DNA from: a plasmid | DNA: 64,000 nt | Reading direction: 5' to 3' (one strand) | Sequence record: NZ_CP093377.1 | Part shown: positions 1-14,485 of the stretch, piece by piece | Position numbering within the stretch: position 1 is the first letter of the stretch | How the letters are laid out: each line of letters opens with the position of its first letter | Notes under the pieces: generated by a model | What the model was told of the DNA's origin: nothing | The model's database searches: none | Seen by the model: the letters and a program-made list of their open reading frames with translations, nothing else | Translations under genes and position numbers: made by a program

Positions 1-1
1 A

Positions 2-374: not shown

Positions 375-520
375 AAGGGTTCACGTTGTCTCCGTCCTCA
401 CCCGTTCGCACCTTTCACGGTGCATTCAGCCCGTGAAAGGCTTGCGCTGCGGCTTGCGGCGTCGCCCCTGCGCCCTCCGCTCAGAGCCGGGTTTTTGTGG
501 CGGCACGGCGCAAGAGGGTG
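375..520 (+). promoter_or_regulatory. Structured repeat copy A1 (putative ssDNA promoter/ssi-like element) upstream of the methyltransferase
   Basis: About 130 bp nearly identical to 2105-2235. Contains a perfect 10-bp hairpin (cctttcacgg N10 ccgtgaaagg). Sits directly 5' of a leading-region gene. Confidence 0.4.
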
Positions 521-545
521 CCGCATATCAGAGAGGAGTGTGTCT

Positions 546-1238
546 ATGTCCCGTTTTATTCTGGGTGACTGCGTGCAGGTGATGTCCCGTTTTCCGGCGC
601 GTGCCGTCGATTTTATTCTTACCGATCCGCCGTATCTGGTTGGCTATAAGGACCGTACCGGGCGCACCCTGGCCGGGGACAACTCTGCCGAATGGCTCCA
701 GCCCGCCTGTCATGAAATGTACCGCGTGCTGAAAAATGACAGCCTCATGGTGAGTTTCTATGCCTGGAACCGCGCGGATCTGTTTCTGAATGCGTGGAAA
801 ACGGCCGGTTTCCGGGTGGTTGGCCATATCGTCTTTACCAAGAGCTACGCCTCAAAATCGACGTTCGTGGGTTACACGCACGAGAGCGCCTACCTGCTGG
901 CTAAGGGGAGGCCGCAAACCCCGGACCGTCCCATCCCGGACGTGATCCCCTGGAAATACACGGGCAACCGACACCACCCGACGGAGAAGCCGGTGCAGAG
1001 CCTGCGACCGCTGATTGAATCGCTCACGCGTCCCGGGGCCATTGTCCTTGACCCGTTCGCCGGCAGCGGCTCCACCTGCGTGGCCGCCGCCGAAGCCAGC
1101 CGCCGCTATATCGGGATCGAGATGCTTGAGGAGTACCACGCCGCCGGCGTCCGCCGTCTGGCACAGGTTGAACGGGCGAGAAGGATGCCGGCGGCCAATG
1201 ACGGCGCGTTTTACCCTGACTGGCCGGAGGCAGCATGA
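546..1238 (+). CDS. Orphan N6-adenine DNA methyltransferase (DPPY motif) of the leading region
   Basis: ORF 420..1238 with internal ATG at 546 preceded by GAGAGGAG. Motifs FILTDPPY, PTEKP and DPFAGSGST match ParB-associated/Dam-like N6 methyltransferases. Confidence 0.85.
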   Translation: MSRFILGDCVQVMSRFPARAVDFILTDPPYLVGYKDRTGRTLAGDNSAEWLQPACHEMYRVLKNDSLMVSFYAWNRADLFLNAWKTAGFRVVGHIVFTKSYASKSTFVGYTHESAYLLAKGRPQTPDRPIPDVIPWKYTGNRHHPTEKPVQSLRPLIESLTRPGAIVLDPFAGSGSTCVAAAEASRRYIGIEMLEEYHAAGVRRLAQVERARRMPAANDGAFYPDWPEAA

Positions 1239-1456
1239 ATTACCCGGGACTTGAACACCTGCGCGCGGACGTGGCCGCGCTCAGCAATGCCATGTGTGAC
1301 GTGCGGATGATGCTGAACCGCCTCGAATCACAGCACCGGCACGATGCGGCAACGCTTACCGAACGTATGGCTGCGCAGACTCTGCGCCGGATCAACACCC
1401 TGCTTCTGGAAGCCTACCGCGAAGCCCTGGTGCTGGACGAAACCTTTCAGGACTGA
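1235..1456 (+). CDS. Hypothetical protein, 73 aa, start overlaps the methyltransferase stop (ATGA)
   Basis: ORF track; translational-coupling overlap. Confidence 0.5.
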   Translation: MNYPGLEHLRADVAALSNAMCDVRMMLNRLESQHRHDAATLTERMAAQTLRRINTLLLEAYREALVLDETFQD

Positions 1457-1511
1457 CTGACCCTGCCGGGCTGATGCCCGGCCTGTAACCCCTTACAAGA
1501 GAGAAAAAACG

Positions 1512-1934
1512 ATGTACGGAACCCGCGAAGAACTTTGTGTACAGCTTGAAAACATGTTCACGTCTGACGAGCCCCTGGTCCTGCTGGTCTGGACGGAAGA
1601 GGGGATAAGCGTGGCCTGCCGTGAAGCCCAGCCAGAACCGGACGGGGCTGAAATCCGGGAGGTGATGAAGGCGCTCGGCGAAATGAAAATGACGCAATAC
1701 CGTCAGCAGGGGGTAAATAATCTGACCATTAGCGACCTTCTGACCCGTCAGCGCGAAGCGGCAAACCGTCAGGTGAGTGTTCCGGCGGTACTCCTGTCAC
1801 GTGTCCTGCGTAACTATGAATGCGAGCTGGAAAACCGGATCGGTATGGCCTGGGAAGCCGGGCGGCAGGAGCCGGAATCCGTCAGGGATGAGCTGAATAA
1901 CGTTCGCGCCCTACAGGAGACGCTGGCCGCCTGA
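1512..1934 (+). CDS. Hypothetical leading-region protein, 140 aa
   Basis: ORF track; the RBS-like string gagagaaaaaacg lies before the ATG. Confidence 0.5.
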   Translation: MYGTREELCVQLENMFTSDEPLVLLVWTEEGISVACREAQPEPDGAEIREVMKALGEMKMTQYRQQGVNNLTISDLLTRQREAANRQVSVPAVLLSRVLRNYECELENRIGMAWEAGRQEPESVRDELNNVRALQETLAA

Positions 1935-2104
1935 GAGAACGCCGGGGTAACGCCCCGGCAACCGGTGGCCATCCACTGCGAATAAGGATGTCAGTGCCTT
2001 CCGCTTTTATCCGCCGCCGCCCTCCGGGCTACGTCGGGACAATGAAACTCCCCTGAAGCTCCGTGCGGTGACGGCATGCGCCGTGACTTCACTGTAGCCC
2101 GGCC

Positions 2105-2235
2105 GCATCGGCCACAAGGGTTCGCTGACGCCTCCGTCCTCACCCGTTCGCACCCTTCACGGTGCATTCAGCCCGTGAAGGCTTTGCGCTGCGGCTTGCG
2201 GCGTCGCCCCTGTGTCCTCCGCTTTTCGCCGGTCT
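2105..2235 (+). promoter_or_regulatory. Structured repeat copy A2 (putative ssDNA promoter/ssi-like element) upstream of the antirestriction-like gene
   Basis: Same hairpin-containing sequence as 375-520. Confidence 0.4.
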
Positions 2236-2289
2236 GTCGTGTCGTCACGGCGATGCCGGAACCGAGAATATGTTAACCGTGGAGGATCT

Positions 2290-2718
2290 ATGAACCAGAC
2301 CGTGACCTGTGATGCTGTTCGTCTTGAGGGTGCGCAGCGCCTGACTTTCCTGCCTGATTTGTTTGGCGGCGATTTTATGACGTCCGAGGCATCCGTGTAC
2401 GCCTACGCCGGGCGTTACTGCCCTGAGTATCAGGGGGGATTCTGGCAGTTTTACCGGCTGCCGGAAGGCGGCGGATATATGGCACCTGACGTGGAGAGCC
2501 TGACCCTGTGCAATCGGGACAACTGGTTTGAGCAGACTGTCAGCGGGGAAGTGGCGGGGATCATCCTCACGGCACTGGTACTGAATCACCGGAGCTGGCA
2601 CCACAGTAACCATGACCATGAGGAGCTGTGCCGCCACTTCTGCCGCCGTTATGAGCAGCTTATGGCATTTGCTGATACCCATCCGGAAAGCGCCACCATC
2701 TGGCGTGCCCTTGACTGA
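2290..2718 (+). CDS. Antirestriction-family protein (ArdB/KlcA/YubI-like), 142 aa
   Basis: ATG at 2290 after GGAGGA. Aromatic-rich motifs (GGFWQFYRLPEGGGY, SGEVAGIILTALVL) resemble the Antirestrict family found in IncF leading regions. Confidence 0.55.
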   Translation: MNQTVTCDAVRLEGAQRLTFLPDLFGGDFMTSEASVYAYAGRYCPEYQGGFWQFYRLPEGGGYMAPDVESLTLCNRDNWFEQTVSGEVAGIILTALVLNHRSWHHSNHDHEELCRHFCRRYEQLMAFADTHPESATIWRALD

Positions 2719-2760
2719 CTGACCACGGGCGGCGATGCCGCCCGATTAAAGGATAAAAAC

Positions 2761-2958
2761 ATGCAACTGTCACCGGAAACCCGCAGCATCCTGCGCCAGT
2801 ATAAAACGCTCATCAACGAGCGACGTCGCGAATCAGGACTCAGCCCCGTAACAACAGCGAAAGTGCTGGATGAGATCTGCGAATCGGCTACCCGACAGTG
2901 TGCCGCCTATCTTTGCGGCCACTTCATTCTCCAGGGCGGCCAGGGGGATGGACAATAA
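2761..2958 (+). CDS. Hypothetical protein, 65 aa
   Basis: ORF track only. Confidence 0.35.
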   Translation: MQLSPETRSILRQYKTLINERRRESGLSPVTTAKVLDEICESATRQCAAYLCGHFILQGGQGDGQ

Positions 2959-3135
2959 ATAATCCGGGCGGGGCATAGGCGCCGCCTGTTCGCGCGCGAA
3001 AACCCTGTCATCCCTTCGGGCTGACGGGCGGCAAGGCCAGCGCCTGCGGCGCTGCCCCCTCCCGCCCTGATGTTAGCCCGGGGCAATGCAGATGAAAACC
3101 CTTGTGAGGGCAAATTGTCACGGATACGGTCCTGC

Positions 3136-3175
3136 GTGGCGTGGCGTGGCGTGGCGTGGCGTGGCGTGGCGTGGC
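3136..3175. repeat. Pentanucleotide microsatellite (GTGGC)x8
   Basis: Eight perfect tandem GTGGC units, counted directly. Confidence 0.9.
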
Positions 3176-3189
3176 GTTGTCGCCAGCTC

Positions 3190-3735
3190 TGAAACCCGAT
3201 CAGCAAATCCTCTGAAAACACCTGAATCCTTCTTCTGGCCCCCTTCGGCTCCCGGCCCGCGTGGCGGTCCGGTCGTCGAGCCCCACTCCGCCAGGTCGGC
3301 TGCTGACGCACCCGCCGGGCTCCGCCGAACCCGCAGGCGGTTTCGGGCTGACGCTAGGGTCTGATGGCTGAGGTCAACCCCCTGGCTTGCACCGGCCGGA
3401 GGCCGGGCCGCCCTGACCGCGCCGGCGGAGCCGTCGCTTTAAGGCCGCCACGCCGTTCCGACGTGTCGGGTGCGTGCATCCTGTTCTCCCGGTGAGGCCA
3501 TCCCCCGTGCGTCCTCACGCGGAGGGCTGCTTGTAGCACCGTCGTGTCGTCATCCGAAGGGTGAAATGCACGCCGCCAAAACTTTTTGCGTGCCGCAAAA
3601 ACTTTTGTCTGCGCCCTTCTTCTGCCGCCCCGCCGTTGCTCCTTTTGCCCTTTGCCGCGAGAGAACTCACCAGGGAGATGGCCAACCATCACCACAGGAG
3701 AAAACCAGGATGCACACACAAAACGTCAACGTCAA
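3190..3735 (+). repeat. Large direct repeat copy R1, ending in the RBS and first ~15 codons of the downstream gene
   Basis: About 500 bp near-identical to 8470-8976 and 11720-12214. GC-rich with internal partial palindromes (ccggccggaggccgg; ttttgcgtgccgcaaaa). Confidence 0.85.
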
Positions 3736-3982
3736 AACCGCCGCTCAGGAATCTTCCAGGAAGATGGGGGAAGAGCAAAACCCTGTTTCTGTCGCGCGTG
3801 AGTGGGTGGCTCAGGCCACTTCGCTGAAGGCGGGGGTCACCGTCACCCTGTCCGACGTTTCCCGATATGGCGACGTGCAGGTGGAGATCCGCACCAACGG
3901 AACGCTTAACTGGCGCGCCTGGTCGTTTGAACCGGATTTTCTTTTTGAACTGAAACGCAACCTGCAATACGTGCAGCTTTAA
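3710..3982 (+). CDS. Hypothetical protein, member 1 of the MHTQNVNVKTAA 5'-module family (90 aa)
   Basis: ATG at 3710 after GGAGAAAACCAGG. N-terminus MHTQNVNVKTAAQESS is shared with the ORFs at 8951 and 12188; the C-terminus is unique. Confidence 0.6.
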   Translation: MHTQNVNVKTAAQESSRKMGEEQNPVSVAREWVAQATSLKAGVTVTLSDVSRYGDVQVEIRTNGTLNWRAWSFEPDFLFELKRNLQYVQL

Positions 3983-4025
3983 CCGGAGGCCGGATGTCCG
4001 GCCTTAACCCAGAGAAGGAGGAAAC

Positions 4026-4391
4026 ATGCAGAACCTTAACACCCGTCCGGCGACCCGTAAGGTCGGGCAGAGCACCGAAATCGTGAAGCTGCTGCGCATT
4101 CAGGCCAGCGACACCCACGTGGTCGAGTTTGACAACGTGGACACCCGTTTTAACGACTGCAACAACTGGCAGGTGATGGCAGGGGACAAACGTGTCCTGT
4201 TCAGCAACCGCATGTATGAACGTTTTTCAGATGTGAAATCGGGGATTCTGGCAACGATCAACGTATGTGAAAACTGCGCCAGCGAAACGGATAAAGCGAT
4301 GCTGGAAGGGGCAAAAGTCATGATGCAGGTACTCGACGGCTATCCGTCCTTTGCAGCACTGGCTGCACACCCGAAACGTATTACCGGTTAA
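4026..4391 (+). CDS. Hypothetical leading-region protein, 121 aa
   Basis: ORF track; RBS GAGAAGGAGGAAAC before the ATG. Confidence 0.6.
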   Translation: MQNLNTRPATRKVGQSTEIVKLLRIQASDTHVVEFDNVDTRFNDCNNWQVMAGDKRVLFSNRMYERFSDVKSGILATINVCENCASETDKAMLEGAKVMMQVLDGYPSFAALAAHPKRITG

Positions 4392-4458
4392 CCGGGTGCC
4401 GTGACCGGATCGCACTCCGGCCACGGCGGACCATCACTTAAACACAGGAGTAAAAATC

Positions 4459-6471
4459 ATGGCCACCACCAATACTACGGCAAAAAAACCTGCGAAATCC
4501 ACCTCTGCGAAAAAGACAGCGGAGAAAATCGCGCAGACTACCGAGCAGAAGCTCGTTCAGCTGCTCGCTGATACGCCCGTGCAAATCTTCCCGTACTCCC
4601 GCCTGTCACGCACTGACTTAAACACGCGCATTATTCCGCATACCGATCAGGAAGTGGAAGAGATGGCAGACAGCATTCAGGCAATGGGCATCCTGCAAAA
4701 CCTGATCGGTGCAGAACTGCCGGACGGTACGATCGGCATTGTCGGCGGGGAAGGTCGCCGCAGGGGCACAGGCATTCTGGTGATGCGCGGTGTGCTCGAT
4801 GCAGACACGCCGTTTGTTCCGGTGAAAGTCCTGCCCGTGGAGATGGCGGTGGCGGCCTCGATGATCGAGAACGGTCGACGTAAACACATGCATCCCGCCG
4901 AGCAGATTATCGGTTTTCGTACCCTTCAGCAGGAAGGTAAAACGGCTTCTCAGATCGGCGCACTGATGGGCTATCACCCGCGCCACGTTCAGCGCTGCCT
5001 GAAACTGGCGAATCTTGCCCCCTCCCTGCTGGATGCGCTGGCGCGGGATGAAATCTCCCTTGAACAGTGTGAAGTCCTGACCCTTGCTGATACCCATGAG
5101 CGTCAGGAGCAGGTCTGGAAAGAGGCTGTTGTACAGTGGCGCGATCCTGCCGTACAGACCCTGCGCAAAATGGTGACCGACGACAAGATGGCCATCAGTC
5201 ACCCGATGTTTGAATTTGTGGGCGAGGAAGCCTATACCGCCGCTGGCGGTACGCTGACCGCCGACCTGTTCAGCGACAGGGACAGCACCTTTGCCGATGC
5301 GGCGCTGGTGAAATCCCTGCTGGCTGGCAAGCTCACCGTGCTTGCCGCCCGCCTTCAGCAGGAGCAGGGCTGGGGCTGGTCAGAATTCCGTATGACGGAA
5401 CTCAGCCACAGCGGCGAGGACAGGGAACAGTACCGCTTTGCCATGCCGGAACCTGTTCTGACCGAAGATGAGCTGCAACGTATTAACGAGCTGGAAGATG
5501 CAATTGAAGGATGTATGGCGTATGACGACGAATACGAGCTTCAGCAGCAGATTGACGATATTCACTGCGAGGCGACTTATCGCGAAGCCACGCCGGAATT
5601 TCGCGCCGCGCACGGAATCTGGGTGTCATGGGATGGTGACAGTTTTCAGGTTCAGCCTGGTATCCGCAGGCTGACCGACGAAGACCGGGCAGCAGAAGAA
5701 CAGGCGCGTCAGGAGCGTGAAAAGAACGTAATCAGACACACCACGCCTGACATTCCCGCTGACGCCTATCCGGCAACGCTGGTTAAGGCCATGTCTGCGG
5801 AGCGCACTCTTGCCGTTCAGGCGGAACTGGCGGGTCGCCCCGATGTATCGGTGGCGCTCCTGACGTGGACGCTGTGTCTTGCGCTCTTTGATCGCACCTA
5901 CGGTAAACGCAGCGAACCGCTGAAAGCCTATGTGACCTCGAATCAGTATCACCTTGCATCACTGGCGCCTTCCGGTGAAACAGGGAAGGCGCTGACGGCG
6001 CTCAGGGCACAGAAAAAAGCGCTTCAGGCAACGCTGCCCGAAAACTGGCATCTCGATTTCACCTGGCTGCTGTCATGGTCAGCAGAGCAGGTGAACACCC
6101 TGCTGGGATTCTGTGCCGCGCACGGTATCAACGGTATTCAGGAACGTATGTATAACCATACGCAGAAAAGCGAACTGGACGGGCTGGAAGCGGCGCTGGA
6201 CTTTGACCTGCGCAAGTGGTGGCAACCGGGGGCTGAGAGCTACTTCGGCAAGCTCACGATTTCCCAGATTGGCAAAGCCTATGAAGAAGCCGGACTGAGT
6301 GCCCGTGCAGGTGAAGTTGTGAAGCTCAGGCGCCGCGATGCGGCAAAGGCCGCCGAACAGGATCTGAATGCTCAGGGCTGGCTGCCTGACTGGATGGTGC
6401 GCACAGCGCCAGCCGCTGAGGCTGAAGAAGCCACTGAATCCGACGCTGATATCACTGACCACGCTGCTTAA
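4459..6471 (+). CDS. ParB-like nuclease-domain protein (YubM-like), 670 aa
   Basis: Large leading-region ORF with a lysine-rich N-terminus and ParB/Srx-like region. It lies immediately upstream of psiB, as in F-like plasmids. Confidence 0.7.
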   Translation: MATTNTTAKKPAKSTSAKKTAEKIAQTTEQKLVQLLADTPVQIFPYSRLSRTDLNTRIIPHTDQEVEEMADSIQAMGILQNLIGAELPDGTIGIVGGEGRRRGTGILVMRGVLDADTPFVPVKVLPVEMAVAASMIENGRRKHMHPAEQIIGFRTLQQEGKTASQIGALMGYHPRHVQRCLKLANLAPSLLDALARDEISLEQCEVLTLADTHERQEQVWKEAVVQWRDPAVQTLRKMVTDDKMAISHPMFEFVGEEAYTAAGGTLTADLFSDRDSTFADAALVKSLLAGKLTVLAARLQQEQGWGWSEFRMTELSHSGEDREQYRFAMPEPVLTEDELQRINELEDAIEGCMAYDDEYELQQQIDDIHCEATYREATPEFRAAHGIWVSWDGDSFQVQPGIRRLTDEDRAAEEQARQEREKNVIRHTTPDIPADAYPATLVKAMSAERTLAVQAELAGRPDVSVALLTWTLCLALFDRTYGKRSEPLKAYVTSNQYHLASLAPSGETGKALTALRAQKKALQATLPENWHLDFTWLLSWSAEQVNTLLGFCAAHGINGIQERMYNHTQKSELDGLEAALDFDLRKWWQPGAESYFGKLTISQIGKAYEEAGLSARAGEVVKLRRRDAAKAAEQDLNAQGWLPDWMVRTAPAAEAEEATESDADITDHAA

Positions 6472-6508
6472 TACCAGAGGCCGCCGCCTTCGGGCGGCGG
6501 GAACAGAC

Positions 6509-6943
6509 ATGACCATGCAATATGACCTGAACCGAATCAACACCCTGACCGCCACAGACCTGGAGTTTATCCGTCAGCAGGGCGAGGACGCGCGCCGCGC
6601 CCTCAGCGATGCCGTGACCGGCCTCCTGTCGGCACCTGAAGGATGGCGCGTCTGCGCCGAGTTCCGCAGCGAGTTCGGCGATTTCTTCCCCGTCCAGTGC
6701 CGCTTCAGCGCGGACGGCAGTGATGACTGGCATCTGTGCGTGTGCAGCCCCGGCGAAGTCTCGCCTTACTGGCTTCTGGTGCTGCTCTCCTCCGGCGGTG
6801 AAGTGGTGCGTACCCTTTACCAGAGCGACACGCTACAGCCTGACCGGATAAACCAGCTGATCGCGCAGCTGGCAGGTATGCGCCGCTTTAACTGCACTGC
6901 CAGCACCGTGGCGAACCTGATGAGCGGGGAGGTGACAGCATGA
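6509..6943 (+). CDS. psiB: Plasmid SOS-inhibition protein PsiB
   Basis: Motifs FGDFFPVQCRF, HLCVCSPGEVS and WLLVLLSSGGE match F PsiB (FGGFFPVQVRF, LALCSPGDVS, VLVLVNAGGE). Confidence 0.9.
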   Translation: MTMQYDLNRINTLTATDLEFIRQQGEDARRALSDAVTGLLSAPEGWRVCAEFRSEFGDFFPVQCRFSADGSDDWHLCVCSPGEVSPYWLLVLLSSGGEVVRTLYQSDTLQPDRINQLIAQLAGMRRFNCTASTVANLMSGEVTA

Positions 6944-7686
6944 TCCCGTCCTCACACGCGCTCGTTTCCCTGAAACCCGCCCGTCAGGCTGCAATACAGG
7001 CTATCAGCCATGTTGAGTCTGCCCGCGAACGCGGCGCACGACTGCCCGCCATGCCGTATGTGCGTACCTTTCTGCGCTTGCTCACGGGCAGCGGTCGCCT
7101 CAACGCCACGGTGGCCAGTAAAATACCTGGCCTGCACTGGGTGCCAGATAACCGTCATTCGAACCTGAAACAGGTCGAGGAGGCGCTTAACACGATGATC
7201 GCCACCAGTGGCGAAGCCTGCCCGCTGCCGCTCACGACTGACGTACAGGCCGAACTGTTCCCGGAAGTCATGCACACCCGCACGGGGCGACGGCTGCACA
7301 GATCCAGCATTAAGACCACGCGTCAGCTTCGCCGCCAGTCCCGTCAGTACGAACAGCGCTGGAAACTGCGCCAGAACCTGCTGGAGCAGGCGAAAATCGA
7401 CCTGAATTTTCAGTCACCGGAAACCGTCTGCACCTGGTACACCCGGTGGAGCGACGAGTTTGACGCGGCAGAGCTTGCCGGACCGTTCTGGCGCTGGCAG
7501 TCGCGGTTCGCGTCGCTGAAGGAACTTGACTGGCTTCGCATCAGCGGTGAGCCGCTGTATGCAGTGATGTACGAAATCCCGTTTATTGTCCGGGAAACAC
7601 CTGAGCATGTTCGTGTCGCTGAACGCTGGCAGGTGCCGAATAAGTTGCAAAATCAGCAGGGGGAAGGGGCGCATCAGAAGTCATGA
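6940..7686 (+). CDS. psiA: Plasmid SOS-inhibition protein PsiA
   Basis: Start overlaps the psiB stop. Length 248 aa; motifs LPLTTDVQAELFPEV and GPFWRW resemble F PsiA. Confidence 0.8.
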   Translation: MIPSSHALVSLKPARQAAIQAISHVESARERGARLPAMPYVRTFLRLLTGSGRLNATVASKIPGLHWVPDNRHSNLKQVEEALNTMIATSGEACPLPLTTDVQAELFPEVMHTRTGRRLHRSSIKTTRQLRRQSRQYEQRWKLRQNLLEQAKIDLNFQSPETVCTWYTRWSDEFDAAELAGPFWRWQSRFASLKELDWLRISGEPLYAVMYEIPFIVRETPEHVRVAERWQVPNKLQNQQGEGAHQKS

Positions 7687-7834
7687 GGATATATACAGTT
7701 TTTGGACTGTTATTCCTGGGCAGATGATCGACAACGGGATATAATGGCGATGGCGCTTGAGGCTTTTTGCCTCATGATGTGAAGGTGGTTTGTTGTCGTG
7801 TTGTGTGGCAGAAAGCAGAAAGCCCCGTAGTTAA

Positions 7835-7900
7835 TTTTCATTAACCCACGAGGCCCCCTGTATGTCTCAACAACAACAGTATGGCCTCTTACCGTGCTTA
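7835..7900 (-). ncRNA. sok: Putative Sok-type antisense RNA of the hok/sok post-segregational killing locus
   Basis: Expected position antisense to the mok start, upstream of hok. Boundaries were not determined. Confidence 0.3.
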
Positions 7901-8077
7901 ATGCAAGGAGGAGTAAACCATGAAACTGCCGCGAAGTACCGTTATCTGGTGCGTACTGATAGTGTGTCTCACACTGCTGATATTCACTTACCTGACGCGA
8001 AAATCGCTTTGCGAAATTCGCCTGAGGGACGGACAACGGGAGGTCGCTGCAATTCTGGCTTACGAATCCAACGGTAA
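7862..8077 (+). CDS. mok: Mok (modulation of killing) reading frame overlapping hok
   Basis: A 71-aa ORF overlapping hok in another frame, the typical hok/mok arrangement. Confidence 0.55.
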
Positions 8078-8081
8078 GTAG
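7920..8081 (+). CDS. hok: Hok-family membrane toxin (53 aa)
   Basis: Translation [53 protein letters not shown] is near-identical to Hok/FlmA. RBS AAGGAGGAG precedes the ATG. Confidence 0.9.
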
Positions 8082-8085
8082 CAAC

Positions 8086-8112
8086 CTGGAGGCGGGGGAA
8101 ACCCCGCCTTTT
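8086..8112 (+). terminator. Rho-independent terminator after hok
   Basis: GGAGGCGGGGG aaa CCCCGCCTTTT stem followed by a T-run. Confidence 0.7.
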
Positions 8113-8189
8113 CAGGGCTGAGTTGCTCTGACATACCTGAAGCGCCTTTATGAAGGGGTTGCCGGTTCGCCGTCAGCCCCTTTTTCCTT

Positions 8190-8976
8190 CCCGACGCGAC
8201 CGCACGCCTGAACCTCCGGGAAGGGCTGTTCCCCTGCGGGGAACGGGGGAAGGGGGACGCGCCTCCGGCGCTGCCCCTCTGCTCCCTCTGCCTGAGCCTC
8301 CCTCCTGCCTGTCCTGCCTGATTTTGTTGAATTCGAAACTCCGTGAGCTACCTGCTCATACCTGGCTTCGGCCTGGTGTGCCCGATGTTCTTTAGCCTGT
8401 GCGTCATATCCGGCGTCCTGCCGGTTAACTTTCGCATCTGCAGCTGTATGGCCATAACCCGAAAACAGGGCAGGGCGATGGCCCCCTTCGGCTCCCGGCC
8501 AGCGCTGCTGTCCGGTCGTCAAGCCCCACTCCGCCAGGGCGGCTGCTGCGCACCCGCCAGGCTCCGCCGAACCCCTCCGGGTTTCGGGCTGACGCTAGGG
8601 TCTGATGGCTGAGGTCAACCCCCTGGCTTGCACCGGCCGGAGGCCGGGCCGCCCTGACCGCGCCGGCGGAGCCGTCGCTTTAAGGCCGCCACGCCGTTCC
8701 GACGTGTCGGGTGTGTGCATCCTGTTCTCCCGGTGAGGCCATCCCCCGTGCGTCCTCACGCGGAGGGCTGCTTGTAGCACCGTCGTGTCGTCATCCGAAG
8801 GGTGAAATGCACTCCGCCAAAACTTTTTGCGTGCCGCAAAAACTTTTGTCTGCGCCCTTCTCCTGCCGCCCCGCCGTTGCTCCTTTTGCCCTTTGCCGCG
8901 AGAGAACTCACCAGGGAGATGGACAACCATCACCACAGGAGAAAACCAGGATGCACACACAAAACGTCAACGTCAA
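8190..8976 (+). repeat. Large direct repeat copy R2
   Basis: 8470-8976 is near-identical to R1 and R3. The extra 5' part (8190-8470) is shared with R3 only. Confidence 0.85.
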
Positions 8977-9265
8977 AACCGCCGCTCCCGAATCTTCCAG
9001 GAAGATAGAGGGAAAAACCGTGTCGTACACGATCCTCGTCGCTGAGCAGAAAAAAAACTCAGCGGAGGAACCTGATGTTCTGGAGTTCAGCAGCCTGGCT
9101 GAGCTGAAGAAACTGCGCAGACGCTGCCCCGAAACGATGCGCTGCACCTATTTCTACGCCCTCAGCAGCGGCGTCGATAAACAGTTCCGCCATATCCATG
9201 TGGCTGAAGCTGACCACTTCAAACAGTTTGTGCGCCTGATCGCGCGCGCAGGTATCGACATTTAA
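8951..9265 (+). CDS. Hypothetical protein, member 2 of the MHTQNVNVKTAA family (104 aa)
   Basis: ATG at 8951 inside repeat R2. The N-terminal 13 aa are shared; the C-terminus is different. Confidence 0.6.
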   Translation: MHTQNVNVKTAAPESSRKIEGKTVSYTILVAEQKKNSAEEPDVLEFSSLAELKKLRRRCPETMRCTYFYALSSGVDKQFRHIHVAEADHFKQFVRLIARAGIDI

Positions 9266-9326
9266 ATCCGGTTTCACCCCGTGCGGCAGCCGCCGCCCGG
9301 AACTTAATCAGACAGGAGCCAGAAGC

Positions 9327-9533
9327 TTGAGCGTTAACACCCCGACCGCAAAGGCCCGTTACGAAAATGGGCATATGTCAGACCCTGAGCCTAAAACAGC
9401 CTCTCTCATTGCGATTTATGGCAATGAGGTGAGCTATGCATGGAACGTTCTGGAGGATTTGAAAGCTGCAGGTGCTTCTTATACCCGCAGAAACATTATC
9501 GCCGATATGTTCCGCCGTCTGGGTGTTCAGTAA
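9327..9533 (+). CDS. Hypothetical protein (68 aa, TTG start), M(S/N)VNTPTA family
   Basis: ORF track. The upstream ~50 bp and first 8 codons duplicate those of the ORF at 9611. Confidence 0.35.
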   Translation: MSVNTPTAKARYENGHMSDPEPKTASLIAIYGNEVSYAWNVLEDLKAAGASYTRRNIIADMFRRLGVQ

Positions 9534-9610
9534 CCCGGACTTACCTCTGACCCGATGCGGTGCTGTATAGCAGGTACCGCTCGGAACTGAATCAAACAGG
9601 AGCCTGAAAG

Positions 9611-10072
9611 ATGAACGTTAACACCCCGACCGCTGCACCAATGGCCTTTTTCGTTCCGTCTCATAACGCCGTTTATGACCGCGCAACCCGGCTGGAAGGG
9701 CAGTGGGTGACTCAGCGTGAAGCGATAACGCTGGAAGCCCTGCGCCGTTTCTATCCGGATGCGGAGCTGATCCCCGCGACTCTGGTTCAGGAAAAGCAGA
9801 ATGAAGGCTATCGCCGTCCCTGGGTGGAAATCACCGAGGCCCGGTACATCGACCAGCTGGAAACGCTGCCGCCAGTGGACTGGTGCAGAGGGTATGGCGG
9901 GGAGTCGTTCAAATCGATGGAGTTTACGGGCGGGGATGTGACCGCAATTTTCGTCCGGTACGGCGCGCGTTTCTTTGAGTGCCATGACCTGCACACCCGC
10001 CATCACCGGGAGCTGATTGGCGACGTGATCACCCGTTTCTGTCTCGATGCGCCGCTGAATTCCGCGCATTAA
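9611..10072 (+). CDS. Hypothetical leading-region protein, 153 aa
   Basis: ORF track; ATG after CAGGAGCC. Confidence 0.55.
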   Translation: MNVNTPTAAPMAFFVPSHNAVYDRATRLEGQWVTQREAITLEALRRFYPDAELIPATLVQEKQNEGYRRPWVEITEARYIDQLETLPPVDWCRGYGGESFKSMEFTGGDVTAIFVRYGARFFECHDLHTRHHRELIGDVITRFCLDAPLNSAH

Positions 10073-10159
10073 AAAAGCAGGGTTGCCCCTGCTTTCTCAA
10101 CGCCGGGTAGCCGCTGTAACGGTGAACCGGCAATCACAACCAAAGTAAGGAGATTGATC

Positions 10160-10306
10160 GTGAAATTTGACCCGCAAACTGTAAAACAGGCTGAGGCATT
10201 TGTAAATGCCCTCCGCGCCGGAAAACGTGCACACATGCCCGCGCTGCGTTTCGGCCAGTGGCAGCAATTTATGACCACCGTTTACGCTGGTCTGGGGCTG
10301 GCATAA
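10160..10306 (+). CDS. Small hypothetical protein (48 aa, GTG start)
   Basis: AAGGAGA lies 7 nt before GTG at 10160; own translation. Confidence 0.3.
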   Translation: MKFDPQTVKQAEAFVNALRAGKRAHMPALRFGQWQQFMTTVYAGLGLA

Positions 10307-10346
10307 CAGGAGGCGGCCGCCTGCGGGCGGCCGGTAAGGAGAAACC

Positions 10347-11124
10347 ATGTCACAACTGAGTTTTGAATCCCTGTTCCTGGCAGACCAGACCGAACCGCAG
10401 CCGCGGGTTTCCGCTCCTGTCCGGGTATTGTCGCCAGCTGAGGCGCGTAAGCAGTTCGCCAGTGTATTCCGCCAGACTGCGAGATATATGCACCGTTCCG
10501 AAGTGTTCCTTGCTGCCAGTGGGCTGGATATGGCGCGCATACACACGCCAGAAAACATCGAAAACAGCCGACGCATCTGCGAACGGTATCAGCCAGACGA
10601 TTTAGACGCCATGAGGCATCTGTTCTGCCTGTTGGTGGAGGGGCTGGCGGGTGAAATGCATGATTTCCTCGGCGCTCTGTATATGGAGCATGAGCTGGGC
10701 GCGGACGAAATGGGGCAGTATTTCTCGCCGTCCTCCATCTCCCGCCTGCTGGCCGGGCTACTCATGCCCGGCGCTCAGGAGACGATAAAGCGTGAGGGGG
10801 GGGATGACGCTCGATGAACCCGCCTGTGGCAGCGCCGGTATGGTCATTGCCTTTGCTTACTGGATGGCTGAAGCGGGACTGAATCCATCTGAACAGCTGT
10901 ATGCGACCTGCACTGATATCGATCCGATGGTGGCAGATATGGCCTTTATCCAGCTGTCACTGCTGGGTATCCCCGCGAAAGTCGTGACCGGTAATACGCT
11001 GACTCTGAAAGCAAATCGCGTGCGTTATACCCCCGTGTATTACTTCAATGACTGGCAGGGACGTCTGGAGTTCCGCAGCCGTTTCGAAGCGATGAAAAAC
11101 TTTCTGGCCACCGTGGCCGCCTGA
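10347..11124 (+). pseudogene. HsdM-like (N6_Mtase N-terminal motifs) gene lacking NPPF, split into two frames at a G8 homopolymer
   Basis: ORF 10347..10817 contains GQYFSPSSISRLL. The +1-frame ORF 10792..11124 contains DEPACGSAGMV and the MADMAFIQLSLLG motif. The frames meet at the G8 tract 10796-10803; removing one G fuses them into a ~258-aa protein. Confidence 0.55.
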
Positions 11125-11165
11125 CTGACAGAGCGGCAGGGCAGACCTGCCGCAGGGAGATAAAA

Positions 11166-11501
11166 ATGACAAGCAACACACTGAACGCTGTTCCGGCGAC
11201 CGTGCTGGAGACCATGGCAGAACGCCTCAACGGCCAGCCTGAACCGCTAAAAATCCGCAACAACGACGATCACGCTGCACTGGCTGCAGATGTGCTCTGG
11301 CAGTTTGCCCGAAAAACCGGGCTGAACAGGGAAAGCGAGAGCGTGCAAACTGTCATCACTGATTTTCTGGCCAATCTTCTGCACCTGTGCGAACAGTGCG
11401 ATCCTGACGGGGCAGGTATCGACGGATTTAATGCCCTGCTGAATATGGCCATGATGCATTATGAGCAGGAAAACGGAGGCGACAGCGAAGAACCAGTTTG
11501 A
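11166..11501 (+). CDS. Hypothetical protein, 111 aa
   Basis: ORF track. Confidence 0.5.
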   Translation: MTSNTLNAVPATVLETMAERLNGQPEPLKIRNNDDHAALAADVLWQFARKTGLNRESESVQTVITDFLANLLHLCEQCDPDGAGIDGFNALLNMAMMHYEQENGGDSEEPV

Positions 11502-11544
11502 TCGGGAGTCTGTGCCCTGGTGGATGCCATCAGGGCAACCGCAA

Positions 11545-12214
11545 AAAAACGCTTCCCCTTAGGGGAAACGGGGAGGGCGAAAGCGCCTCCGGCGCTCCTG
11601 CCATTCCCCGCTACCGTACTTCTCTCCTTACCTGCCTTCAGAACCGGCGTCCTGCTGGTTAACTTTCTCAGCTGCAGCTTTGTTATGGCCATAACCCGAA
11701 AGCAGGGCAGGGCGATGGCCCCCTTCGGCTCCCGGCCCGCGTGGCGGTCCGGTCGTCAAGCCCCACTCCGCCAGGGCGGTTGCTGACGCACCCGCCGGGC
11801 TCCGCCGAACCCCTTCGGGTTTCGGGCTGACGCTAGGGTCTGATGGCTGAGGTCAACCCCCGGGCTTGCACCGGCCGGAGGCCGGGCCGCCCTGACCGCG
11901 CCGGCGGAGCCGTCGCTTTAAGGCCGCCACGCCGTTCCGACGTGTCGGGTGCGTGCATCCTGTTCACCCGGTGAGGCCATCCCCCGTGCGTCCTCACGCG
12001 GAGGGCTGGTCGTAGCACCGTCGTGTCGTCATCCGAAGGGTGAAATGCACGCCGCCAAAACTTTTTGCGTGCCGCAAAAACTTTTGGCGGCGCCCTTCTC
12101 CTGCCGCCCCGCCGTCGCTCCTTTGCCCTTTGCCGCGAGAGAACTCACCAGGGAGATGGCCAACCATCACCACAGGAGAAAACCAGGATGCACACACGAA
12201 ACGTCAACGTCAAA
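11545..12214 (+). repeat. Large direct repeat copy R3
   Basis: Near-identical to R1 and R2, including the embedded start of the downstream gene. Confidence 0.85.
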
Positions 12215-12481
12215 ACCGCCGCTCAAGAATCTACCGGAAGATGTGATTCAAACCTCACCACGTCCCAGTTCACGGATCTGTTTTGCTGGGTCCTGGCAGC
12301 ATCGGAAGGGGAGCCACAACCGGCAATTTTTACGCCGCCAGAGAATGCCACTGAGCTGACGTTAATTAATGACGAATGCCCGGATTATATCTCTGTCTGG
12401 GTTGTGGATGGTCGCCCGGTGGCAGCTGCAATGCCGCTGGATAATTTTCACCGCGTTATTCCTTCATCATTTGCTAAATAA
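12188..12481 (+). CDS. Hypothetical protein, member 3 of the MHTQNVNVKTAA family (97 aa)
   Basis: ATG at 12188; N-terminus MHTRNVNVKTAAQEST. Confidence 0.6.
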   Translation: MHTRNVNVKTAAQESTGRCDSNLTTSQFTDLFCWVLAASEGEPQPAIFTPPENATELTLINDECPDYISVWVVDGRPVAAAMPLDNFHRVIPSSFAK

Positions 12482-12497
12482 TCAGGAGTAAATAAAA

Positions 12498-13319
12498 ATG
12501 GTCAGTTTCGCAAGCCGCTATCGTATGCCTTCCTCGATCCGTAAAGACCGTCCGCTGACGAATGAGGAATTACAGCTCATCGTTCCGAGCGCGTTCTCAT
12601 CGGATAAACACGATTCACGCTCTGAACGTTATACATATATCCCGACCATAAACATTCTTGACCGTTTACGTGATGAAGGGTTTCAGCCGTATTATGCAAC
12701 GCAGTCACGCACACGTGACCAGGATAAACGCGAATTTACAAAACATATGCTTCGCCTGCGTCGTCATGACCAGATTAACGGGAAAGAAGTACCGGAAATT
12801 ATTCTGCTGAATAGCCATGATGGTTCAAGCAGCTATAAAATGATCCCCGGTATGTTCCGTCAGGTTTGCAGTAATGGTCTGGTTGCATGGAAGGATTTTG
12901 GTGAAATCCGCGTACCCCACAAAGGGGATATTGTCGGGCAGGTTATTGAAGGCGCTTACACGGTGCTGAAAACATTTGACGCGGTTGATGAAAATATTGA
13001 CCTCATGAAAAGCATTCAGCTCACTTTGCCTGAGCAGCGCCTTTTTGGTGCGACCGCACTGGAACTTAAGTACGATGGAAAACCAGCGCCGATTACGCCG
13101 GAGCAAATTATTAACCCCCGCCGGGTACTCGACAGAGGCCAGGATTTATGGACCACGTTTAACGTGGTACAGGAAAATGTGATCCGTGGGGGGATTCGTG
13201 GCAGAACGCAAAAAGGGAAGGTGACCAGAACGCGGGAAGTCACCGGAATTGATGGTGACATCAAATTAAATCAGGTGCTCTGGAAAATGGCGGAGGAGTT
13301 TGCAAAACTTAAGGCCTGA
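12498..13319 (+). CDS. DUF932-like plasmid/phage-related protein, 273 aa
   Basis: Size and position (leading region next to oriT) are typical of DUF932 proteins. RBS CAGGAGTAAATAAAA precedes the ATG. Confidence 0.6.
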   Translation: MVSFASRYRMPSSIRKDRPLTNEELQLIVPSAFSSDKHDSRSERYTYIPTINILDRLRDEGFQPYYATQSRTRDQDKREFTKHMLRLRRHDQINGKEVPEIILLNSHDGSSSYKMIPGMFRQVCSNGLVAWKDFGEIRVPHKGDIVGQVIEGAYTVLKTFDAVDENIDLMKSIQLTLPEQRLFGATALELKYDGKPAPITPEQIINPRRVLDRGQDLWTTFNVVQENVIRGGIRGRTQKGKVTRTREVTGIDGDIKLNQVLWKMAEEFAKLKA

Positions 13320-13347
13320 AAATTAAGCCGCTCAACAGAGCGGCTTT

Positions 13348-13887
13348 TTACTGTCCGCTATGTAACGAGGCCGTTTCCGCAATTTGAATCGCCTTCTCCT
13401 TTCCCGCAGCTGGCGCCAGACGTTCAGAAAGCAACTTTTTTCTGGCGAGCAATACACGATATATATTTTTGATATCCTGAGCATACGCCTTGCGCTGCGC
13501 AATGAGCTTTTTGCTCGGCCCCGTATTATACATCCCTACGCTGTCCCAGTTTTTTCCGTATGACCTGAAGTTGTGCGCCAGTACCCATGCACCCGTATAA
13601 ACGCAGATGCATGGATCATTCAACAGGCGCTCTCGGGTAATATTGAAGTTTTTAAGTTTACCGTAATGAGAACTGTTCACCTGCATCCCGCAGACATCTT
13701 CTGTTCCATTTCTGTTAGATCCATTTATCGCACCCGGCTTAAGTCTGCTCTCTTTAATTGAAATTGACATAAGCAGCAGCGGATCAATTTGATAATCTTT
13801 CCCGGCCTGATCAAAGCACATCTGGGGAGCTGCGCCAGCAGACATGGATAGGGTCAGCAATGCCGCAGGGAGTATCGATATTTTCAT
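13348..13887 (-). CDS. Lytic transglycosylase (gene X / orf169-like, SLT domain) with signal peptide
   Basis: Signal peptide, then an ES catalytic-Glu motif (SISIKESRL) and NGTEDVCGMQVNS. Adjacent to oriT as in F. Confidence 0.8.
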   Translation of the reverse strand: MKISILPAALLTLSMSAGAAPQMCFDQAGKDYQIDPLLLMSISIKESRLKPGAINGSNRNGTEDVCGMQVNSSHYGKLKNFNITRERLLNDPCICVYTGAWVLAHNFRSYGKNWDSVGMYNTGPSKKLIAQRKAYAQDIKNIYRVLLARKKLLSERLAPAAGKEKAIQIAETASLHSGQ

Positions 13888-14039
13888 TGTTTGGCCTTTT
13901 AACGAAATACACGGGCTCTGGAGAGTCGCCTTAAAAAATACCCCGGCGGATCGTCGTAATCAAGTTAATTCACTACAAACGCGCGTGAGCGCTCTCCTGA
14001 AGGGATTTAACACCCGTCCGAAATAAACATGTCAGAGCA

Positions 14040-14130
14040 GTAGACGGTATTAACACGCCGCTCTTTACTAACCCTTTAAAACATCACACCCCACGCAAGA
14101 CTTCGTCTTGCAGATTTTTTCTTTAAATTC
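14040..14130 (-). other. oriT nic region (F-like), nick on the minus strand
   Basis: The minus strand reads TTGCGTGGGGTGT|GATG, which matches the F nic consensus TTTGCGTGGGGTGT|GGTG. An adjacent inverted repeat gcaagac/gtcttgc lies at 14095-14112. Confidence 0.6.
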
Positions 14131-14189
14131 AGTGGCATGATGTGTGTTTTATTTCGTAATTTTTGAGTATGCGCGCTTAAGGTGTGTGG

Positions 14190-14465
14190 ATTGACACACA
14201 TTGCAGTGCTTAATCAGGCACTGCAATGTGTGCTAATACAGCACTCTGAAGTGTGGGGATTGTGTGTATTCAATTAATAGAGTAACTTAAAAGTAGATGG
14301 TGCCTGAACCACACACATCATAGTGCCTAATGCACACACATCATAGTGCCTGATTAGCACACATCTTTAGGGATGGATTAGATATAAAATCAGTTGGTTA
14401 CCATAACACAGCACCACTGACAGTTGTTAAAGCTCGCCATTGCAGTGCCGCATCAGGCACTGCAT
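14190..14465. promoter_or_regulatory. TraM operator (sbm-like) palindromes and traM promoter region
   Basis: Repeated perfect palindromes cattgcagtgc..gcactgcaatg and gcactatgatgtgtg units lie upstream of traM. Confidence 0.55.
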
Positions 14466-14485
14466 TAGAATATCGAGAAATTATT

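Follow-up and report, generated by a model that had tools for sequence, protein, structure and literature searches.

The 64,000-nucleotide stretch of plasmid sequence NZ_CP093377.1 that we analysed (the window) carries three long direct repeats, R1–R3, which are quite probably diverged class-1 (Frpo/ssi) single-stranded-DNA (ssDNA) promoters with a built-in translation start. The kind of element is known, and the subfamily has been on record since 2024 as low-certainty 'Frpo*' candidates; what seems undescribed is that the Shine–Dalgarno sequence, the ATG and the first ~19 codons of the downstream gene lie inside or adjoining the basal stem of the hairpin.

The window represents an F-like leading region. 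The positions of the SLT gene and traM place oriT at ~14.0–14.4 kb, as in F, and the minus strand is the transferred strand (T-strand). The three modules, like every leading gene, are directed towards oriT on the plus strand, and the genes follow one another in synteny with those of F: methylase, KlcA-like, ParB-like, psiB/psiA, hok/sok, DUF932, SLT, traM. The landmarks are as follows.

7751–7922, plus strand: sok antitoxin RNA of the hok/sok module, between R1 and R2 (Rfam RF01794, 98 bits)
12498–13319: DUF932 gene, directly downstream of the 97-aa ORF listed below
13348–13887, minus strand: SLT gene
14486–14872, plus strand: traM

The sok RNA and PK-repBA (50618–50739) are the only Rfam 15 matches in the window at the gathering threshold. 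In F, flm/hok lies between Frpo2 and Frpo1, which is the layout of hok/sok between R1 and R2 here (F map; PMC9849209).

A first-pass annotation had reported three near-identical direct repeats; the repeats exist, but their boundaries needed correction, as R1 had been drawn too generously on its left and the right ends had been set ~30 nt short. In the alignment, the part common to all three copies is ~528 bp each and comprises blocks of 300, 114 and 102 nt, each in three copies of 94–100% identity, except that the 102-nt block falls to 68% in R1; the long blocks are 97–99% identical. Another ~100 upstream bases are common to R2 and R3 and absent from R1. Repeat blocks and alignment together give these boundaries.

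3237–3765, minus strand (the functional strand being the transferred one): R1 full module, composed of a distal conserved block (3237–3469) followed by the hairpin (3470–3744) and an end motif
8480–9006, minus strand: R2 full module
11717–12242, minus strand: R3 full module

Aligned at the nucleotide level, the copies cease to be identical at ...GGAAGAT(G/A), 19 codons into each ORF, in agreement with the earlier reading that they end inside genes whose 90-, 104- and 97-aa products all begin MHT(Q/R)NVNVKTAA(Q/P)ES(S/T)... and then diverge. Spurious ORFs also run across the repeats on both strands. The module is present in 1586 PLSDB plasmids, so the repeat observation is far beyond chance, and in every plasmid inspected among these carriers its orientation is constant, upstream of an annotated gene. 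Relationships of the copies to those of the nearest plasmid, pECC59-2, depart from positional orthology; gene conversion takes place among the copies, which bears out the recombination between repeats proposed at first pass.

On the minus strand, each repeat folds as a ~275-nt imperfect hairpin.

3470–3744, minus strand: R1 hairpin, with apex palindrome at 3583–3601 and a basal stem that holds the ATG at 3710 and the first codons
~8711–8985, minus strand: R2 hairpin, apex at 8824–8842
~11949–12222, minus strand: R3 hairpin, apex at 12062–12080

The T-strand of R1 gives a fold of −167.7 kcal/mol (z −8.8). When the two strands are compared, T-strand against plus strand, the energies are −102 and −69 kcal/mol for R1, −99 and −69 for R2, and −104.5 and −80.8 for R3; the T-strand is the stabler in 77 of 78 copies (−82.7 vs −66.1 kcal/mol), and the hairpin has 92 G:T pairs against 28 A:C pairs, a strand asymmetry that would suit an antisense RNA equally well. 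In a set of 36 relatives below 90% identity, which are phylogenetically related and whose alignment also supplied the consensus structure, 38 conserved pairs are paired in 93.8% of cases, as opposed to 37–57% with the partners slid, and compensatory changes occur at 18 of the 38, values that 0 of 500 shuffles reached. The pair at codon 2 (C/A, giving His/Asn) is compensated in 32 of the 36 sequences.

What ties these hairpins to known ssDNA promoters? Frpo1 (= ssiD) and Frpo2 (ssp1a/b) of F are class-1 ssDNA promoters (Masai & Arai 1997; Couturier et al. 2023, PMC9849209), and an nhmmer profile of the family matches Frpo1 at E 1.5e-20, ssiD at 2.7e-19 and Frpo2 at 4.9e-16, as well as Serratia Frpo' at 3.8e-9 and ColIb Frpo3 at 8e-6. 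The matches to the F elements are colinear over the hairpin (model positions 2–306), whereas pairwise BLAST against F finds only 27–43 nt; the deposited ssiD strand is the minus strand here. R1–R3 and the F elements sit at matching places in syntenic leading regions, and both sets are built of direct repeats of ~0.55 kb (the F pair Frpo2/Frpo1, with hok between, is 559 bp long and 89% identical). They share a T-strand hairpin, the fold of F Frpo2 having the same architecture as that of the R1 T-strand, with an A/T-rich apical palindrome, the arm-specific bulge GTGCATTTCA(CCC) and the basal TTTTGACGTT motif. Unlike the repeats described here, however, F has two copies rather than three, its −35/−10 elements differ from the candidates in R1–R3, and its basal stem has no ATG, ssb and ygeA starting 20–30 nt past the repeat with their own ribosome-binding sites. 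The first-pass idea of an Frpo/ssi-like promoter has thus gained a T-strand hairpin homologous to the Frpo/ssi single-strand promoters, with activity as a prediction.

The closest published relatives are 'Frpo* 5, 6, 7' from a Salmonella enterica conjugative element, listed as computational candidates and rated of low certainty because their −35 and −10 elements are unlike those of Frpo (Samuel et al. 2024, Nature; Supplementary file 4). The repeats match them with 72–80% identity over 277–402 nt (E 4e-30 to 3e-70) and the family profile at E 1e-53 to 6e-71; they have the apex, the bulge and the GGTGCTAC block of R1–R3 and therefore belong to the same subfamily. Their published sequences end at the annotated ATG, and the in-ORF basal stem and common N-terminus are not in their description. 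More distant are ssi1–3 of ColIb-P9/pESBL (Bates et al. 1999; Nasim et al. 2004; Wen et al. 2025, PMC12672017), likewise three dispersed Frpo-like hairpins in one leading region, each before an early operon, with pESBL transcription starts confirmed by 5' RACE; among them the profile finds just ColIb Frpo3, as a partial match (E 8e-6), and a leader–ORF fusion is not known for these elements. Class-2 and class-3 ssDNA promoters (ssp2/Frpo3 upstream of ardB/klcA; the M.EcoGIX promoter) follow the same principle of a T-strand hairpin before anti-restriction or methylase genes, and ssp2 doubles as a replication roadblock (bioRxiv 10.64898/2026.01.09.698686), but we found no sequence relationship between them and R1–R3. 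The window also has class-2/3-type hairpins, the D4 repeats at 390–510 and 2132–2252.

Candidate promoter elements can be proposed on the non-template arm of each hairpin.

3553–3558, minus strand: R1 putative −35-like hexamer TTCGGA, aligned with the corresponding F ssiD segment in the profile alignment
3530–3538, minus strand: R1 putative TG-extended −10-like element TGCTACAAG, 17 nt from the −35-like hexamer and beside a conserved internal loop
8794–8799 and 8771–8779, minus strand: R2 −35-like hexamer and −10-like element
12032–12037 and 12009–12017, minus strand: R3 −35-like hexamer and −10-like element

The layout, TTCGGA, 17 nt, TG-C-TACAAG, matches consensus at 3 of 6 positions in the −35-like and 4 of 6 in the −10-like hexamer, the latter having no T at position 6, and the mirrored plus strand of the −10-like element reads TCCTTT. 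GGTGCTAC is invariant, or almost so, in the 36 relatives. A strict sigma-70 consensus scan returned zero sites in or directly upstream of R1–R3 or their ORFs, and 3 sites in 14.5 kb where 5.6 were expected. Folding of the minus strand, as proposed at first pass, has in other words produced the long hairpin, with −35/−10 elements that are only candidates; we infer both the hexamers and the ssDNA-specific activity of R1–R3, and transcription is predicted to start at ~3647–3656 (R1), 8888–8897 (R2) and 12125–12134 (R3).

Translation signals and cargo are arranged as follows.

3696–3701, plus strand: R1 Shine–Dalgarno sequence AGGAGA, followed by the ATG at 3710 and the 19 shared leader codons (3710–3766)
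3710–3982, plus strand: 90-aa ORF, leader plus DUF905-like (YfjA/YkfF-like) cargo (PF06006, E 9e-5; PDB 2hjj, YkfF, E 0.011)
8951–9265, plus strand: 104-aa ORF, leader plus YgeA homologue (66.7% identity over 90 aa to F YgeA, E 4e-42)
12188–12481, plus strand: 97-aa ORF, leader plus cargo matching no family, with a leader-bearing homologue in L058 (59% identity)

PGAP annotates the same ORF starts in pECC59-2, and the leader ATG is presumably used for translation. Two further ORFs of the window begin with a leader-like M(S/N)VNTPTA and have no hairpin. The basal stem and its immediate flank hold the Shine–Dalgarno sequence, the ATG and ~19 codons, and therefore an M(N/H)TQNV... N-terminus is common to many cargo families: 84 leader ORFs fall into 18 such families, Enterobacterales-wide, among them ArdC, KlcA/ArdB, YgeA, DUF905, DUF4942 and DUF5983, and some of this cargo is also found elsewhere without the leader. 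Four module-plus-ORF units lie within 6.8 kb in L050. The suggestion of a swappable 5' module is accordingly upheld, the search of other plasmids having found the same module fused to many other ORFs. The leader's frame is open for at least 40 codons in 79 of 82 fusions, as compared with 18 of 84 and 13 of 86 for the other two frames, and the RNA from −30 to +40 around the start is almost unstructured (mean MFE −4.2 kcal/mol vs −12.5 at other starts). Leader variability shows no three-base periodicity, codon position 3 being as conserved as positions 1 and 2, several first positions varying freely and residues 15–22 being variable; the relatives were gathered by a pattern within the leader, so the conservation of those 20 nt is ascertained. 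Because this pattern of variation is that of nucleotide-level constraint, the peptide has probably come along as a passenger; most likely it results from stem pairing and an A/C-rich, unstructured mRNA start and has no function as a tag. The first-pass annotation had left open whether the peptide was a tag of its own or part of the repeat; the latter is favoured, and codon-position conservation and the covariation of codon 2 with the opposite arm speak against the former.

Could the shared ~19-residue N-terminus nonetheless be functional, as a degradation tag, a transfer or targeting signal or an interaction handle, and so be the reason that the module ends inside ORFs? The in-frame fusions (79 of 82) across 18 cargo families would fit, as would F YgeA, which outside the F repeat retains a diverged leader (MSTRNIHVNTAS) in which several codons differ synonymously or conservatively, and the two window ORFs that start M(S/N)VNTPTA without a hairpin. 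We consider this improbable, however, as third codon positions are conserved like first and second ones while several first positions are free to vary, residue 2 switches between His and Asn together with the opposite hairpin arm, residues 15–22 are variable, the homologous stretch of F is conserved though non-coding, and cargo of the same kind works elsewhere without the leader. A bolder proposal, that the leader is a functional tag on every early protein (e.g. for rapid turnover or a common partner) and that cargo is captured in frame by a dedicated process at the sharp 3' boundary, strikes us as distinctly improbable; if it were true, leading regions would be an integron-like system for anti-defence genes. 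To integron gene cassettes there is a functional analogy only: they too are single-ORF arrays with an element that folds in ssDNA and interchangeable cargo, but the modules have no integrase or attC-type site, their element sits on the 5' side of the ORF, which it provides with expression signals, and module exchange presumably proceeds by homologous recombination.

The repeats might instead be mainly ssi signals that prime the complementary strand, the hairpin RNA staying in place as primer and ORF expression being secondary. The family is homologous to ssiD, and it was as an ssi signal that F Frpo (ssiD) was originally isolated; its transcripts act as primers for DNA synthesis in vitro and apparently also in vivo (PMC7690428; bioRxiv 10.64898/2026.01.09.698686); additionally, the distal ~235 nt of each repeat, which is outside what the ssDNA-promoter reading accounts for, could serve such a function. 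This priority of priming is plausible though unlikely, since every module is followed by a conserved Shine–Dalgarno sequence, ATG and in-frame cargo, the cargo includes anti-restriction genes that need early expression, and the two roles coexist in F, which makes priming an added role rather than an alternative. If the conserved structure were RNA, either a minus-strand antisense RNA or a 5'-UTR translation regulator of the sense mRNA, covariation and G:U-type wobbles would also be expected of a structured RNA with the minus-strand sequence. That explanation is very improbable: the repeats match no Rfam 15 family at gathering thresholds, the consensus scan found no promoter-like site for minus-strand transcription into them, the sense strand folds much worse and its RNA is almost unstructured near the start, and homologous hairpins have been shown to act as DNA. 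Duplication typically leaves direct repeats of 0.5 kb behind, and spurious ORFs do occur on both strands, but inert IS or segmental-duplication remnants with chance ORF fusions are exceedingly improbable given the constant orientation before an annotated gene in every inspected plasmid, the covarying structure and in-frame fusions far above chance. We rejected an IS or transposon remnant: the repeats have no transposase, no transposase-like ORF was found, the element always runs in the direction of the leading genes, and the repeat-end cargo ORFs that were tested match no transposase family in Pfam, NCBIfam or PHROGs.

If R1–R3 are class-1 ssDNA promoters, their mode of action might be as follows. 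During conjugation, the minus strand would be led into the recipient by its 5' end, with R3 arriving first, then R2 and then R1, and before complementary-strand synthesis ~275 nt of each repeat would snap back into the long imperfect hairpin. The 3' arm would be the non-template strand, offering a −35-like TTC/TTG hexamer, a 16–18-nt spacer and a TG-extended TAC(A/G)A(G/C/A) by the conserved internal loop, and host sigma-70 RNA polymerase would transcribe along the 5' arm and onward into the downstream gene(s). In double-stranded DNA, the hairpin would be gone and the plus strand would have no −10 (TCCTTT), so expression would be transient. The transcribed arm would carry the Shine–Dalgarno sequence, the ATG and ~19 codons, making a portable promoter-plus-translation-start cassette behind which any ORF would be expressed as an in-frame fusion to M(N/H)TQNV(NV)(K)TA..., and homologous recombination and gene conversion among copies would homogenise the modules and could exchange their cargo.

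In the first minutes after it enters a cell by conjugation, a plasmid has to counter restriction, CRISPR and SOS responses, and single-stranded-DNA promoters decide which of its genes are expressed at that stage. If the GC-rich subfamily is a true Frpo relative, experimentally grounded knowledge reaches ~1600 sequenced plasmids of Klebsiella, Enterobacter, Citrobacter, Serratia, Pantoea and others. There are practical consequences as well. The gene starts within the repeats are probably real, and annotation should not trim them; promoter catalogues that cut at the ATG lose the basal stem. As 0.5-kb recombination substrates, the repeats could delete or swap segments of the leading region, and for translation-ready expression specific to ssDNA the module offers a compact, natural part, its activity being predicted. 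The leader sequence makes it cheap to search for genes that are expressed early and probably serve anti-defence: at least 18 families come up with it, mostly of unknown function, with ArdC and KlcA/ArdB among them.

The window holds the leading region of an F-like conjugative plasmid, with genes for a DNA methylase, a KlcA/ArdB-like protein and a 670-aa ParB-like protein, then psiB and psiA, as well as hok/sok, a DUF932 gene, a lytic transglycosylase gene (opposite strand) and traM. The gene order is syntenic with plasmid F, which places oriT at about 14.0-14.4 kb and makes the minus strand the transferred strand (T-strand); the leading genes, all encoded on the + strand, thus have the T-strand as template. 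Exact ORF products are present in Cronobacter sakazakii and Enterobacter records, and the nearest PLSDB plasmid, pECC59-2 of Enterobacter hormaechei, also has three copies of the repeats considered here. Elsewhere in the window, an Rfam match to the PK-repBA pseudoknot (93 bits; 50618-50739) marks an IncFII-type replicon.

The first-pass annotation described three direct repeats, R1, R2 and R3, that give three proteins a common N-terminus, and this description is correct except for boundary details. A repeat search returned three-copy families of 300, 114 and 102 nt, spaced by 5241 and about 3238 nt and 94-100% identical to the reference copy; the 102-nt block in R1 is the one exception, at 68%. 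A three-way alignment gave unbroken identity from GGCCCCCTTCGGCTCC through ...GGAAGAT, the core common to R1-R3, and ~100 further upstream bases are common to R2 and R3. Every core stops 19 codons inside an ORF; the three ORFs begin MHT(Q/R)NVNVKTAA(Q/P)ES(S/T), the leader, and have no relationship beyond that.

3237-3765: R1 core (three-way alignment)
8480-9006: R2 core (three-way alignment)
11717-12242: R3 core (three-way alignment)
3710-3982, + strand: ORF at the R1 end, 90 aa
8951-9265, + strand: ORF at the R2 end, 104 aa
12188-12481, + strand: ORF at the R3 end, 97 aa
7751-7922: sok RNA (Rfam match)
2501-2644 of comparison locus L085: distal block of the repeat, outside the window

Directly 5' of R1, a perfect pentanucleotide microsatellite, (GCGTG)x8.8 at 3134-3177, replaces the upstream bases common to R2 and R3. 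The sharp 3' boundary of the repeats coincides with the 5' end of ssiD, a single-stranded-DNA (ssDNA) promoter hairpin of F. Rfam at gathering thresholds gave no match inside the repeats.

Folded as ssDNA, the minus strand of R1 reaches -167.7 kcal/mol, compared with -120.7 +/- 5.3 kcal/mol for shuffles (z -8.8), mainly as one long imperfect hairpin at about 3470-3744; the Frpo-like structure that had been proposed for the transferred strand is thus obtained, and Frpo2 of F gives the same type of fold. Aligning one arm to the complement of the other reveals what R1/R3 and F ssiD have in common: an A/T-rich apical palindrome (CAAAAAGTTTTG...), a GC clamp, an 8-9-nt bulge on the 3' arm alone (GTGCATTTCA), a long stem with many mismatches and a basal segment with TTTTGACGTT. 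In the window, this basal segment, read as its reverse complement, supplies the ORF with its start codon and first codons, whereas the homologous segment in F has no ATG and is 5' UTR.

Searching one-genome-per-species contigs with the leader pattern yielded 74 loci, almost all from Enterobacterales, and BLAST with the hairpin retrieved 1586 plasmids; 36 copies less than 90% identical to one another were aligned for covariation, and RNAalifold predicted the long hairpin from this alignment. Over 38 pairs, 93.8% of cells are paired versus 37-57% with partners slid by 1-3 columns, both sides have changed in 18 pairs versus 6-11 in the slid controls, and 0 of 500 shuffles reach the observed pairing values, all with a structure derived from the same alignment, related sequences and 20 ascertained pattern bases. 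The helix with the ATG and codons 2-4 is 98% paired, and the first base of codon 2 (C/A; His/Asn) covaries with its pairing partner in 32 of the 36 sequences. Additionally, G:T pairs outnumber A:C pairs by 92 to 28, and of 78 copies, 77 fold more stably as T-strand than as + strand (means -82.7 and -66.1 kcal/mol), which together indicate that the T-strand sequence is the one that folds.

How do these hairpins relate to characterized elements? For comparison we used the sequences in Samuel et al. 2024 (Supplementary file 4), both known Frpo/ssi elements and that paper's own candidates. Pairwise BLAST of the repeats against genuine Frpo elements or the F leading region found only 27-43 nt alike, which taken alone suggested no kinship; a family profile was needed to show the relationship. 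A profile HMM of the 36-sequence alignment aligns colinearly, over model positions 2-306, with F Frpo1 (E 1.5e-20), ssiD (2.7e-19) and Frpo2 (4.9e-16); it also matches Serratia Frpo' (3.8e-9) and part of ColIb-P9 Frpo3 (8e-6). These matches identify the repeats as diverged homologues of the ssDNA promoters that Wen et al. 2025 call class 1. F itself has two 559-bp repeats that share 89% identity, Frpo2 and Frpo1, one before ssb and the other before ygeA with hok in between; these ssDNA promoters have been shown to switch on early gene expression in transconjugants (PMC9849209). Over 277-402 nt, R1-R3 share 72-80% identity with the candidates 'Frpo* 5-7', which come from a Salmonella element; Samuel et al. 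2024 characterize these candidates by an Frpo-like fold with considerably different -35/-10 elements and mark them low-certainty. Judged by sequence and predicted fold, the repeats are of the class-1 kind, in a subfamily earlier flagged only as a low-certainty computational candidate, which the present evidence lifts to well-supported homologues.

The promoter hexamers themselves we put forward as candidate elements only. In the non-template arm, conservation is highest in two blocks, GTGCATTTCACCC and GGTGCTAC; the order in R1, from loop to base, is a -35-like TTCGGA (+ coordinates 3553-3558), 17 nt and TG-C-TACAAG (3530-3538), and relatives have TTGnnn, 16-18 nt and TGCTACGA(A/C). The A at position 2 of the -10-like hexamer is kept in 35 of 36 sequences, and the bases after it face a conserved internal loop, paired in just 0-7 of 36. 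The mirrored + strand reads TCCTTT, which would explain inactivity of the candidate promoter in double-stranded DNA. The R1 hexamers match the consensus weakly (3/6 and 4/6, position 6 without T), and a strict sigma-70 scan gave no site in R1-R3. In window positions 1-14500, three consensus sigma-70-like sites occur versus 5.6 expected from shuffles, none inside or directly 5' of R1-R3 or their ORFs; one (7717-7745) adjoins the hok/sok locus. By geometry, transcription would start at about 3647-3656, giving a 55-63-nt 5' UTR.

The distal ~235 nt of R1 (3237-3469), like the R2/R3 equivalents, lie outside the hairpin. This block is conserved separately, at 88-89% identity, in more than 2000 Klebsiella plasmids; there it is followed by an Frpo hairpin of the F/Serratia type that lacks the leader ATG, upstream of the DUF932 gene. 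A second repeat family (390-510 and 2132-2252, 87% identical) immediately precedes the DNA methylase and the KlcA/ArdB-like ORFs, and on the T-strand its copies fold into hairpins of ~200 nt (-64.5 and -62.7 kcal/mol, folded over 300-560 and 2040-2300); pECC59-2 has three copies. By sequence similarity to the 'Frpo* 1 / Frpo' 4' candidates that Samuel et al. listed, members of this family are probably class-2-type ssDNA promoters.

Recombination between the repeats, one of the explanations offered in the first-pass annotation, gains support from the comparison with pECC59-2. Cargo, i.e. the diverging portion of each ORF after the leader, is 96-97% identical at orthologous positions, and the R3 core shares 89.1% identity with its positional orthologue but 93.9-95.4% with R1/R2 of its own plasmid. 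Repeat cores that do not follow position are a signature of gene conversion between copies. For F, Couturier et al. (PMC9849209) argued that hok/sok between the repeats penalises deletion of the interval; by analogy, hok/sok between R1 and R2 would penalise loss of that interval.

The same module, i.e. the hairpin-bearing repeat with Shine-Dalgarno sequence, ATG and first ~19 codons, precedes other ORFs on other plasmids. In the retrieved loci, 84 ORFs start M(N/H)TQNV(NV)(K)TA(A/T)xES(S/T)ERW(G/V) and then diverge into 18 cargo families (BLASTP, E<1e-4), among them ArdC (ArdcN plus zincin peptidase), KlcA/ArdB (PF03230), DUF4942, DUF5983 and DUF1419-like, DUF905-like and YgeA-like proteins. 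AGGAG(A) precedes the leader ATG at a 9-nt distance. Of 82 distinct cases, 79 keep the leader frame open for at least 40 codons past the leader (median 107 codons), compared with 18/84 and 13/86 for the other two frames (medians 17 and 12), which argues that cargo is genuinely fused to the leader ATG. Cargo families are also found without the leader, for example in the window as the KlcA-like gene, the 68-aa ORF and the DUF1419-like ORF, so the leader is a portable addition. In sequence searches of NCBIfam, Pfam, PHROGs and PDB, the R1 cargo gave weak DUF905 and YkfF matches and the R2 and R3 cargos no match; by BLASTP, the R2 cargo is a YgeA homologue. An origin of the repeats as IS or duplication remnants was rejected, given the lack of a transposase, the covarying structure and the in-frame fusions.

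Variant arrangements also occur. A 6.8-kb Rahnella inusitata contig (L050) holds four module-plus-ORF units in a cassette-like layout (cargo KlcA-like, DUF905-like, YgeA-like and one without assigned family). Leader-bearing modules of four Pantoea/Erwinia loci (L028, L041, L047, L067) have an apex like class-2 hairpins (CGCAAGCCGCAGCGCAAGCGAGC...) and not the A/T-rich palindrome, which suggests chimeric modules. In the window, a 64-nt repeat (9286-9349 and 9570-9633, 83% identical) with Shine-Dalgarno sequence, start codon and codons M(S/N)VNTPTA begins the adjacent ORFs 9327-9533 (68 aa) and 9611-10072 (DUF1419-like); in other species, both cargos have homologues with the full MxTQNV leader, and the 64-nt repeats look like leader remnants without the hairpin. 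Enterobacterial modules on contigs assigned to unrelated taxa (L077, Streptomyces morookaense; L019, L053 and L057, MAGs) are probably contamination or mis-binning; the leader-cargo ORF of L077 and L019 is identical to that of a Klebsiella plasmid in L003. The 90%-identity cluster with the 104-aa YgeA-like protein has, as an odd grouping, a 153-aa DUF1419 protein as representative.

Is the leader peptide a tag, or is it simply part of the repeat? Both had been proposed, and the evidence favors the second. Leader variability tested for amino-acid-level selection has no three-base periodicity, and for this reason we downgrade the idea of a functional tag: third positions of ACC, GCC and GAA, three codons that the search pattern does not include, are no less invariant than first and second positions, and several first positions are variable. 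The absent periodicity and the compensated His/Asn change point to nucleotide-level constraint, of which stem pairing is one source and the mRNA start probably a second. From -30 to +40, the mRNA has a mean MFE of -4.2 kcal/mol (z +1.2 versus shuffles), compared with -12.5 kcal/mol for other gene starts in the same region; leader codons are 39% A and 34% C. As a separate observation, GCGGCGGTTTTGACGTTGACGTT is near-invariant and is also conserved in F, where it is non-coding. F (L001 13962-14070) has a leader-like segment twice in tandem, copy 1 non-coding, without ATG and inside the Frpo1 repeat, and copy 2 diverged, just beyond the repeat, where it forms the actual N-terminus of YgeA (MSTRNIHVNTAS). 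Most likely, the peptide is a by-product of the module, and it may still have a function of its own.

A literature search for the leader peptide string gave one unrelated match only, and we found no earlier description of a hairpin-embedded translation start with a 19-codon leader common to many cargo families. From these sequence comparisons, we conclude that the module would constitute a complete promoter-plus-translation-start cassette. The identity of the element will not surprise specialists; its cassette architecture is directly testable.
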